18,739 nt of DNA. Origin: a virus. Taxonomy: Duplodnaviria > Heunggongvirae > Uroviricota > Caudoviricetes. Positions 15,201-18,200 of this stretch are shown here, piece after piece (positions within the stretch are counted from its first letter, which is position 1; each line of letters starts with the position of its first letter). Position numbers: made by a program. The DNA lies in IMG/VR virus record IMGVR_UViG_2648501730_000002, positions 1 to 18,739 of that record, one strand, 5' to 3'.

Positions 15201-18200
15201 TGCAGCCGATACCATACGGCATTTAGCGGCATTCATCGTACACTCAACGGTTAGCTCTTCATTCGTGGCATTCACCTGAAAGGTCCGGGAGTGTAATTGC
15301 GTACATTTACCACTGAACGAACCTTCAACAAGAACACGACCACGCTGCAAAATACGGAACGGAATTGTTCCCTGAAAAGGCTTTACGGTTACCAGTAATT
15401 TCTTCATGCATTCTCCGGATAACAAAAATACTAGTTAATACACTGAGTACGGATATATTCCTGAAGCATTCTCAATGCAGCCTGGTCGCTGATGATTCCG
15501 TCTCTGATACCGAGAACGTTTCGTCCAGCAACCGGAGAGAGTTCGACGGCGGCATCATTGCCCACGCCGGAGGTGCCGGTGGCTTCACGCACGGTACCGG
15601 AGCAGGTGGCGTTGATCCGCAGGCGCTTACGACCAGCGGCAACATCAGCACGCAGAGTTTCATTTTCAGCTCTCGCATCGGCTAATTCCCTCGAGTATTT
15701 TGCATCGAGCGCAGCAACATCGCGCTGGCGCACCTGCATATCAGTAATGGTTGCGTTTGCCAGCTCCAGCTCTCTGGCTTTTTTATCGCGCTGCGCTTTG
15801 TAGGTGATGGCGTTATCGCGGTAATGATTCAGCCCCAGACTAAGCGCACCACAGACCACCAGCAGAATAACGGTAAACGCGGAAAGCATTCGGTTTATGC
15901 TCACCCCAGCAGCCCCGACGAAGATAACATCATCCAGCCCATGGAAAGAAAAAGAGCAACCAGCATTAGTGAAAATGAAATGCCGACGATTACACAGAGG
16001 ATCTTCGCCAGCATTATGAGTTTGTCTGACATGTTTAATCCTCTTCACGATTTCAACGCAATGACCAGTTTTGCCAGCCCATACAGCATCGGAGACACAG
16101 CAATACCGACCGCCACCCACTTAATAGCAAAAGCCTGTGCTCTGCTGATGTCATCAGTTACTGGCGCTTTCAGTTCAAGGCCGTTTTTCATAGTCAACCT
16201 CAACAGAATTCGTTTATACTTTTCCATGTTCTCCCTTGCCTTATCCAAGGTCAGAAACACAAAACCCCGCTTGCTGCCAACAAACGTGGTTTTTACTTTT
16301 ATTCACTTAGGTTTTGCCAGTTCGCAGGATTTCGTGTTATCCGTCCGCGTTGGCCAACGTCATTTTTCAGCAAAATATTCTGCTTATCTGTCGATACCCC
16401 AGCACGCCAGCGCGCTCTCCTGGTCACGACGGGATACCTGACCATAACAGTTATTTGAGCGGATACGGCAGTCTCTGCCACCGTCTTTAATCCACCAGCG
16501 AATCGCCTCGCATGCACCCCGGCGATCGCCTGCATTAATTCGTTTATAAAACGTCGACGGGAAACACTTACCGGGGCCAATGTTATACGGGCAGAATGAC
16601 GCGATCCCCGCTTTCTGGGGTTCAGTCAGTGGCACTTTGATGTTTTTCTCCACCCATGCCAGCGCCTTATCACGTTCGATGGCGTTAACCTGGTCGCATT
16701 TCTCCTTCGACAACTTCATGCCCGGGACGACAGGTTTACCATCCACCAGAATGGCACCGCGACAGATGGTCCAGATACCCGCGCCATCACGGTATGCCGT
16801 GGTGTGGTTACCTTCCTTTTCATCCAGAAACTGGTCGAGAATGTCAGGCGCAGGCGCACCAGCGGCAATCAGCGCCAGAACGGCAGCCGACAGGCCGTAT
16901 TTGATTTTGGTGTTCATGGATATTTATCAGGATTTATCGGTTCCGAATCCCTGGATATGTTAAGTCTTCAGCCCGCCAGTGGTGGGCACTGGTGTTTTAC
17001 CTGATGGCTGAAATATATCTGACAATTCCCGTCGAGGATTTAGCAATGTATAACGATGAACATAAATATACCGCCTGCATGCAGGCCATGAATGAACAAT
17101 TTAAATCAGCATTCCTTAAACTCATTCAGCAAAACCACGAAGCAGTAAAATCCATTCAGGCTGAGCCGTATGGACACCTCACACCACCAACTCTCGACAT
17201 TATGTCCAGAATATTAACACCAGCCATGCTTCTACGTCTGAAAGACAATATAAATGACTGGTTAAACGAAGAATTAAACTACCTTGAATGTGAGTGGGAT
17301 CATCATTACGCCAAATCACAAAAAGAACGCATCTTCCGTCGATTATCCGGCAACAGATAACGAGCCAGCTTATATACGTCCTTTAAGATAAGTCAGTCCT
17401 GGATGAAACCAGTAAGCCGGCACTTTTTTAAAGGGCGGATTATCAAAATCACGAAGAAGAGCCTCCCGCACAACTGCATCCTTGTCCGCACCACTGGCCA
17501 GCGCTTCAATCTCAGCAGCTACCTGCAGATATCCCATGCAACGACCAATGCGCTTCATTAGTCCCTGCTTTTTATTGTTCTTCAGGTAATCAATGGCAAA
17601 TTCAATGAGCGCCTCACTGTGCTGGTGCGATGCTGGTGTTACTTTTCCATCTTCACGGATCGTGATATTCCAGTCATCGCTTGTCACAATAAAAGATGGC
17701 CGATTATCCCCCCATTCCTGGTCTTTATCCGGTGCAGACGCAATAAAATAACGTTTATTGCCTTCCTCTCCGGCACTTTTAACTGTAATGGAGTACTTTT
17801 CTGACAATGCGGTCGGTAAAAACTTTTCCTGCAAAATCTTCGCAAAGGTCCTGCGAGCAATTTTGATGCAATCATCGTAAAACGCTGCTTCCTGCTCATC
17901 GCGGCGTTTTTTTTCATCTTCAGAAACCATCAGCACCGACAGTTTTTTATTCAGTTCAGTGATTTCATTTTCCAGGCAACTTATGCGCTGATTCATTTCT
18001 TCATGGTTCATCGTCTACTCTCCCCGCGCCGCCTTACGCCGGTCTTCTCTGATTTTGAAATACAGGTTCGTCAGGTACGTCAGCAGACCAAACAGCAGAC
18101 TCCCCAGCACGCCTATTGCCACCCACTGGGACGGAGAGACTTTGTCCAGCAGCTGCAGTAACCAGTATCCCGTCCCCACCGCTGACGTGGTGTATGACAC

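Follow-up and report, generated by a model that had tools for sequence, protein, structure and literature searches.

A small gene opposed to late transcription in the lysis cassette of a lambdoid prophage and its relation to the reverse morons of HK97 and HK022

The DNA analysed here (the window) is a stretch of 18,739 nucleotides (nt), positions 1 to 18,739 of the virus record IMGVR_UViG_2648501730_000002 (Caudoviricetes). It is part of a lambdoid prophage of Escherichia coli, and the region was 99–100% identical to prophages in O157:H7 and other Shiga toxin-producing E. coli strains. The late genes all lie on the minus strand, in the order S, a gene for a protein of 213 amino acids (aa), R and, further left, Rz/Rz1. 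Between the 213-aa gene and R, on the plus strand, is a gene for a 104-aa protein (Table 1). Comparison with homologous loci placed this gene as an insertion whose upstream region belongs to a conserved cassette common to known reverse morons. The arrangement belongs to the reverse-moron class known from HK97 and HK022, and is already annotated in the Shiga toxin 2 (Stx2)-converting phage 86. We consider it reasonably probable that the 104-aa gene is one half of a two-gene moron, of which it would be the small reverse member and a YdfR-family gene the forward member, that this moron was inserted between S and R of a P21-type cassette, and that the gene is expressed in the lysogen.

An initial annotation of the window had described a gene running against the late operon, 9 base pairs (bp) from the stop of its convergent neighbour, with no terminator between them and a non-coding late-sense strand opposite it. 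All of this was borne out. The 9-bp distance was exact, and scans of the region found no intrinsic terminator between the two stops in the window. The late strand across the 104-aa gene was closed in all three frames, the longest open run being 51 codons. In all homologous convergent pairs the stop-to-stop spacer was 9–19 bp.

By definition, classical morons carry a promoter and a terminator of their own, and expression while the prophage is repressed is expected of them (PMC3594210, citing Juhala et al. 2000). Two properties of a moron, extra DNA in an otherwise conserved gene order and a deviant GC content, were found in the insertion. Compared with phage Stx2_95, the window contained an extra 447 bp (16924-17370), with flanks 100% and 97% identical. 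In Stx2_95, a homologous forward gene is followed directly by R, and the reverse gene is absent from an otherwise near-identical cassette. The cargo between S and R also differed among BP-4795, Stx2_14744 and Stx2_95. The GC content was 40.0% in the 104-aa gene and 44.2% in the 213-aa gene, against 54.9% in R, 54.6% in S and 55.0% in the window. The 104-aa gene was opposed to late transcription in every locus examined. In Salmonella, the convergent pair was located upstream of the holin, and its orientation relative to the late genes was unchanged.

The region upstream of the gene carries a putative 5' untranslated region (UTR), designated the reverse-moron leader. A covariance model (R1) was based on 13 leaders, from tail slots and from Salmonella; it included no leader of the E. 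coli S-R type, and the window was excluded. R1 matched the window on the plus strand only, with 34.8 bits (E = 2.7e-7), and scored 79–96 bits for HK97, HK022 and ES18. A hairpin scan of viral contigs gave 120 loci, 32 of them with the full core, CAGCCCGCCAGTG-loop-CACTGGCG, in at least 12 flanking contexts. The ATG lay 74–79 nt from the start of the core, was preceded by a Shine-Dalgarno (SD) sequence, and opened a plus-strand open reading frame (ORF) of 70–105 aa against the surrounding late genes. The reverse ORFs behind the leader formed 11 unrelated BLASTP clusters, and the convergent forward genes only 4, the largest of which joined the 213-aa protein, YdfR of BP-4795 and gp24 of ES18. 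As in the HK97-type cassette, the window had a leader before the reverse gene and a convergent forward gene on the late strand; its location is not in the tail operon.

The leader was well conserved. Mean pairwise identity was 89–91% in the gap and 83% in the 104-aa coding sequence (CDS), and the gap was at least as conserved as the flanking coding DNA. In the Salmonella homologues an identical hairpin was present upstream, with TCAGCC before it and GGCTGA behind it, although the CDS was only 44% identical. An Rfam scan of 14500-18739 gave no match for the leader at E <= 1, and two chance microRNA matches elsewhere. The core sequence was not found in any paper of the literature searched, and searches by accession number for a lysogen with the gene gave no paper.

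RNAalifold predicted a helix (P1) enclosing a hairpin (P2) in the leaders, and P1 with P2 was the single-sequence minimum free energy (MFE) fold in 11 of 16 leaders. Paired cells made up 92.7% in the leader alignment, compared with 29–51% in slid controls. A third hairpin, which is not in the window's subfamily, showed changes on both sides at two pairs. Evidence for an RNA role of the leader is indirect. The P2 loop varied in length, and three variants (the window, L016 and L007) had a G-U pair on the plus strand where the minus strand would have A-C; in one variant (L001) this was the other way round.

Other roles of the hairpin were considered and rejected. The hairpin at 16974-16994 with its TTTT was considered as an intrinsic terminator or attenuator. 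The T-run occurred only in the E. coli S-R subfamily, and other leaders had CATTAA, AAATCA or CACTCA after the hairpin. Termination is therefore not the conserved role of P2. A relic of the 3' end of ydfR (BP-4795 shares 16862-16985) was also rejected, because the full hairpin was kept in Salmonella and tail-operon cassettes with unrelated flanks. The P2 loop was 4–6 nt across the leaders, so that the half-site spacing varies by 8–10 bp, which makes the operator of a dimeric repressor unlikely.

The initial annotation had proposed that the gene has its own promoter in the 128-bp gap, and had found no convincing sigma-70 pair by eye. A consensus scan agreed, as no site upstream of the gene reached 9 of 12 consensus positions. 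A weaker candidate was present at a conserved position (TTTATC-17-TATGTT). No position-weight-matrix match upstream of the gene scored better, and against the background of the window it stood at the 99.98th percentile. In 16 of 16 distinct leader contexts, a TAnnnT hexamer ended 7–8 nt before the C of the conserved CAGCC. Six such -10-like hexamers were found across the contexts (TATGTT, TAAAGT, TAATGT, TATGGT, TACCGT and TACGGT), with a weak -35 (gTTACa; TTGAGT in Salmonella) 16–18 bp upstream. For the candidate promoter, this comparative evidence carries more weight than the position-weight score. What stood of the proposal is thus a conserved promoter-like element and leader, as before the reverse morons of HK97, HK022 and ES18; the candidate itself is only weak. 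Transcription is predicted to start at about 16968-16969, in which case the RNA would open directly with helix P1.

The ATG at 17046 is preceded at 7 nt by GAGGA, and other cassettes had an SD-like AAGGA, AGGAG or GAGGA at the equivalent position. The Prokaryotic Genome Annotation Pipeline (PGAP), which names the product a hypothetical protein, gives the reverse gene as 118 aa, starting at 17004, in some genomes (WP_371832131.1; e.g. L002 6087-6443 and L014 9087-9443) and as 104 aa in others. The in-frame ATG at 17004 was rejected as the true start. This AUG lies within the conserved AUGGCUGA, the 3' strand of P1, and has no SD. In other variants the corresponding ATG was out of frame or headed an upstream ORF of 6–12 codons, and other leaders had ACG, GUG or GCG there. 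The start at 17046 is the one that this comparison supports.

Table 1. Coordinates of the features of the S-R region in the window
Feature	Position	Strand	Remarks
S, P21-type class II holin (pinholin)	18015-18230	-	Pfam PF04971, E = 4e-32; late gene upstream of the insertion; PGAP annotates a 71-aa form
213-aa gene, late-sense forward partner	17370-18011	-	phrog_1085, E = 2e-101
Spacer between the two convergent stop codons	17361-17369	.	9 bp
104-aa reverse gene	17046-17360	+	Convergent with the 213-aa gene
SD sequence of the 104-aa gene, GAGGA	17034-17038	+	7 nt before the ATG; read from the sequence
Reverse-moron leader, putative 5' UTR	16967-17038	+	Match to covariance model R1
Leader helix P1	16969-16973 and 17006-17010	+	CAGCC pairs with GGCTG, enclosing P2
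Leader hairpin P2, 8 bp	16974-16981 and 16987-16994	+	CGCCAGTG, loop GTGGG, CACTGGTG, then TTTT (16995-16998)
Candidate sigma-70 promoter	16933-16961	+	-35 TTTATC (16933-16938), 17-bp spacer, -10 TATGTT (16956-16961)
Gap between the 104-aa gene and the R start codon	16918-17045		128 bp
R, lysozyme, P21-type (signal-arrest-release) endolysin	16384-16917	-	Pfam PF00959, E = 1.3e-24; lysozyme in homologous records; first late gene downstream of the insertion

The 104-aa ORF is a real gene under selection. Its frame contained no stop in 11 homologous loci (24–85% aa identity), whereas the other five frames contained 2–12 stops. Pairwise Nei-Gojobori ratios of nonsynonymous to synonymous substitution (dN/dS) were 0.17–0.52, and indels were in-frame. 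These properties put the ORF beyond chance. Purifying selection had been named beforehand as a test of the ORF, and it was seen. A spurious ORF was rejected on the conservation, the dN/dS ratios and a confident predicted fold.

A first search for homologues of the 104-aa protein gave 12 clusters, 65–100% identical. A profile search extended the family to 44 clusters with conserved motifs, reaching Salmonella enterica (about 44% identity); the farthest member was 24–26% identical. The most distant homologues were too diverged in their alignment to yield a pattern for scanning. As to their genome context, scans of viral contigs found no locus for P0134 and P0139 and one for P0136. No locus was found for P0134 or P0147 in genomes, nor for P0139 in a metagenome scan. 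In complete E. coli genomes, the gene was found at 132 places in 95 of 5426, always at full length.

The product is 12.4 kDa with an isoelectric point of 6.5, and no signal peptide or transmembrane segment was evident. AlphaFold2 gave a confident five-helix bundle (predicted local distance difference test score, pLDDT, 85; predicted template modelling score 0.78), a fold with no known relatives. The protein matched phrog_1853 (E = 1.5e-45, residues 1–103), a family without known function. Neither it nor the 213-aa protein matched the anti-phage defence models of PADLOC 2.0 at E <= 1, and relatives gave only a chance-level match. The pair is not a co-directional bicistronic operon and has no recognizable toxin or antitoxin fold, as a type II toxin-antitoxin system would.

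The 213-aa forward partner consists of an N-terminal coiled coil and a conserved C-terminal domain (C-domain) of about 110 aa, which ends ...GRCMGYLQVAAEIEALASGAD...YLKGRI. Relatives of 259–333 aa carry PF07041 (DUF1327/YdfR) N-terminal to the shared region, and the family is strongly mosaic. A Pfam search gave no PF07041 match in the 213-aa protein. By these comparisons it is a mosaic protein of the YdfR family without the DUF1327 domain. Its AlphaFold2 model was poor (pLDDT 48) and was not used. The C-domain was found at 970 places in 787 genomes, about 7 times more often than the reverse gene.

Among the leader-bearing cassettes, the 104-aa family was found only beside forward genes ending in the C-domain (10 of 10 loci), whereas none of the forward genes of the other 10 reverse families had it. 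From E. coli to Salmonella the two genes also diverged together, to about 44% and 40% identity, and moved jointly to a different slot. This linkage and co-divergence make the C-domain the best candidate partner of the 104-aa protein. YdfR of K-12, a DUF1327 protein of the Qin prophage, is reported in a paper of 2026 to co-purify with RNA and to bind RNase E through the N-terminal, catalytic half of that enzyme (PMC13232886). This could hint at the role of the cassette forward genes; it concerns DUF1327, which is not in the window's copy.

Some observations were made on relatives of the two genes. In O104:H4 strain 2011C-3493 (L003 2825-3631, minus strand), PGAP calls the YdfR-family partner a C-terminally truncated pseudogene (336 bp). 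The region was spanned by an intact ORF of 268 aa, of the same length as orf5 of phage 86 and closely similar to it. The pseudogene call seems to be artefactual, the result of a comparison with short YdfR models. A widespread variant of the 104-aa family (protein P0171, 220 member sequences) stood alone between S and R in E. coli (L019-L021, 3456-3773, plus strand). It had no C-domain partner and a different upstream region with a perfect TATAAT. The gene caller gives it 90 aa, and an upstream ATG suggests about 105 aa, yet there is one stop from the guessed start at 3456.

We propose the following course of expression. While the prophage is repressed, transcription would run rightward from about 16968, driven by a weak sigma-70 promoter within the 128-bp gap. 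The P1/P2 helix and hairpin would stand at the very beginning of a 5' UTR of about 78 nt, and ribosomes would initiate at the ATG at 17046. The plus-strand transcript, having no intrinsic terminator, would run antisense into the 213-aa gene. The product would be a small soluble (cytoplasmic) five-helix protein, most probably acting by binding another protein. The best candidate target would be the C-domain of the convergent partner, or the copy of the same domain in a related superinfecting phage.

Once the prophage is induced, RNA polymerase modified by Q would proceed from pR' through S and the 213-aa gene, and then produce about 450 nt of antisense RNA that is not translated, before reaching R. 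Lambda-type antitermination would suppress Rho-dependent polarity across these 450 nt. On induction, the reverse gene would be silenced by convergent transcription and by the pairing of sense with antisense RNA. We only infer the promoter activity, the transcription start, the lysogen expression, the silencing on induction and the protein target.

Several findings weigh against a lysogen-expressed reverse moron of this kind. The candidate promoter is weak, with a poor -35 and no site of 9 of 12 consensus positions beside it. Terminator scans found none after the 104-aa stop, so that the gene lacks the terminator of its own that a moron should have; gene 23 of HK97 has a canonical one. Homology and fold searches gave no support for any function of the 104-aa protein. 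In the model alignment P1 and P2 were invariant, with 100% of cells paired and no covariation, for which reason an RNA structure is not settled against a DNA site. In the variant L001, a P2 pair was broken on the plus strand. Each gene of the pair was also found alone, so that binding to the partner is not required for either, and the E. coli variants of the two genes were shuffled and not strictly matched. The suggestion in the initial annotation of a lysogen-expressed gene was thus upheld in part: the low-GC insertion, the reverse orientation throughout and the reverse-moron leader speak for it, and the absence of a consensus promoter against it. What had been missed is that the arrangement is annotated in phage 86 (orf5/orf6) and belongs to a known class of two-gene morons.

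The linkage of the two genes could also mean that they form a cognate effector/inhibitor pair like that of a colicin operon, in which the late C-domain of the 213-aa protein is active and the 104-aa protein is its constitutive inhibitor or immunity protein in lysogens. The restriction of the 104-aa family to C-domain neighbours, the co-divergence with the joint move, and the constant 9–19 bp between the stops would all suit such a pair. On the other hand, the C-domain far outnumbers the reverse gene (970 places in 787 genomes, against 132 in 95), and Stx2_95 has a C-domain gene without a reverse gene. Intact genes of the 104-aa family also occurred without a C-domain partner (L019-L021) or with only a 70-aa remnant of one (L015). 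With the shuffling of the E. coli variants, and no similarity to toxin, immunity or defence families in the Pfam and PADLOC searches, we consider a cognate pair doubtful. A wider proposal, which we think unlikely and put forward tentatively, takes the element of about 135 nt (weak promoter, P1/P2 leader and start codon at a fixed distance) together with the mosaic YdfR-family forward gene as a mobile 'expression socket' for hypervariable reverse genes. Their products would be lysogen-expressed immunity or exclusion factors matched to the forward C-terminus, and the leader an undescribed cis-regulatory RNA. If so, the cassette would be a phage analogue of the colicin/immunity layout.

Two further explanations, both improbable in our view, move the function away from the protein. 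The RNA might be the active product, an unterminated plus-strand transcript acting as antisense RNA against the 213-aa gene and the S mRNA, which would damp leaky lysis-gene expression or exclude related superinfecting phages. With no terminator after the gene, read-through antisense to the late genes is expected, the non-coding leader is better conserved than the CDS, and STnc6030 of BTP1 is a precedent (PMC7067206). Such a role does not account for the purifying selection on the protein and its confident fold. Gene 23 of HK97, moreover, has the same leader and a canonical terminator, so that read-through is not a trait of the family; the RNA and protein roles are not mutually exclusive. The conserved core might instead act as DNA, either as a recombination 'boundary sequence' for cassette exchange or as a palindromic protein-binding site, with the 104-aa gene as mere passenger cargo, perhaps not expressed in lysogens. 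It would fit the identical 27-nt cores with unrelated sequence on both sides in at least 12 contexts, the invariance of P1 and P2, and the homology between cargo types, which breaks exactly at the hairpin. T4-type phages exchange cassettes via promoter/stem-loop (PeSL) elements. However, half-sites at varying distances do not suit a dimeric operator well, a function in expression is indicated by the fixed TAnnnT and by the ATG's constant distance, and the G-U pairs of the three variants would be A-C on the minus strand. The element could serve both recombination and transcription initiation.

Placing the 104-aa gene among the reverse morons gives a testable model of its expression, with a predicted start, -10, leader and start codon, and corrects the 118-aa annotation. 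Among the carriers of the gene are strains of O157:H7 and Stx-converting phages, as well as a lambdoid prophage in the strain of the O104:H4 outbreak of 2011. A possible novelty is that many unrelated reverse genes, in late-operon slots of three kinds, share a single conserved promoter/leader. Such sharing was not found described in the literature searched, and may already have been noted in Juhala et al. 2000. Standing before at least 11 unrelated small genes (in HK97, HK022, ES18, Stx phages and Salmonella prophages), the promoter/leader provides a sequence handle for finding lysogen-expressed cargo in late operons, and the leader is a candidate regulatory RNA absent from Rfam. Should the reverse gene and the C-domain prove cognate, the lysis cassette would be shown to harbour a prophage accessory system of a new kind. 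A link to the anti-sRNAs (anti-small RNAs) of Tree et al. 2014 was rejected, as these belong to a different locus, between the stx moron and nanS-p.

Some neighbouring features were also seen. On the minus strand of the window at 17320-17400, a long imperfect hairpin followed by UUUUU lies just past the stop of the 213-aa gene, antisense within the 104-aa CDS. Its MFE is -21.3 kcal/mol (z = -1.98); as a terminator for the 213-aa gene when transcription proceeds without antitermination, it is a weak candidate. At 14755-14820, just upstream of the gene for the terminase small subunit, there is a near-perfect inverted repeat of about 60 bp (GGATCCGACATGAAA...TTTCATGTCGGACC), possibly part of cos or of a terminase-binding region. 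Its weak matches to an Rfam microRNA model on both strands (E = 0.07–0.18) are surely due to chance.

Other cargo was seen in homologous loci. In the Stx2a-converting phage Stx2_14744 (LC567820; L012 1659-2291, plus strand), the same S-R slot contained an unannotated ORF of 210 aa with a strong AGGAG SD, behind a diverged copy of the hairpin (R1 18.5 bits, E = 0.018). It had no Pfam or PADLOC match. It overlaps the 3' half of an annotated 161-aa late-strand gene by about 250 bp, and one of the two calls is probably partly wrong. In Salmonella prophages, HicA/HicB modules adjoined the convergent pair between the Q antiterminator region and the holin (L016 4760-5394 and L018 5695-6333). This stretch seems to be a general cargo hotspot.

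The closest known systems of this class are in the tail operons of HK97, HK022 and ES18. In GenBank, with annotations after Juhala et al. 2000 and the ES18 record, gp22 and gp23 of HK97 are given as 'moron product' and 'reverse moron product', gp22 and gp23 of HK022 'moron gene product', and gp24 and gp25 of ES18 'possible moron'. In each, a late-sense forward gene is convergent with a small reverse gene, and the two are inserted in the late operon. Upstream of the reverse gene are TAnnnT, the hairpin core and GGCTGA, with the ATG at +74-79. Gp24 of ES18 is a DUF1327 protein, a forward partner of the YdfR/DUF1327 family as in the window. These cassettes differ in their location, between I and J or between M and L rather than between S and R, and their reverse proteins are unrelated in sequence to the 104-aa protein. 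In the leader of the window's subfamily, compared with theirs, GGCTGA stands about 10 nt nearer to P2, the third hairpin is missing and a T-run follows P2. HK022 and HK97 (L142 and L143, about 2486-2508), and also L029, L050, L056, L081 and L118, had a strong intrinsic terminator on the late strand to the left of the leader. It consists of GCCACC-loop-GGGTGGC followed by T8 and directly precedes the next late gene's start codon; nothing equivalent is present in the S-R cassette of the window.

The same slot is occupied in the Stx2-converting phage 86 (NC_008464), in the order S, orf5, orf6 (reversed) and R, with the same orientation and 9-bp spacing. Its orf6 was 68% identical to the 104-aa protein, and the C-terminal domain of orf5 81% identical to that of the 213-aa protein. 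Orf5 differs in having a DUF1327 N-terminus instead of the coiled coil, and the two products are annotated only as hypothetical or YdfR family.

Classical morons such as lambda bor resemble the 104-aa gene as accessory genes in or next to the late region, opposed to late transcription and of deviant GC content. Lambda bor, however, lies after Rz, outside the lysis cassette, so late transcription can reach an essential gene without crossing it, and it has no sequence relation to the 104-aa gene. In pore-forming colicin operons, an immunity gene on the opposite strand lies between the colicin gene and the lysis gene. The order of an induced effector gene, a convergent small constitutive gene and a lysis gene is similar; there is no homology to colicins or immunity proteins, and most copies of the C-domain have no reverse gene. 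The antisense RNA STnc6030 of the Salmonella prophage BTP1 is antisense to late genes and excludes related superinfecting phages (PMC7067206). The transcript proposed here would likewise be expressed in the lysogen and antisense to late genes; STnc6030 is non-coding, whereas the present locus has a conserved ORF. The case in the window is set apart from the known reverse morons by the missing terminator, by its own protein family, and by its slot in the lysis cassette, where late transcription must cross the gene to reach an essential lysis gene.

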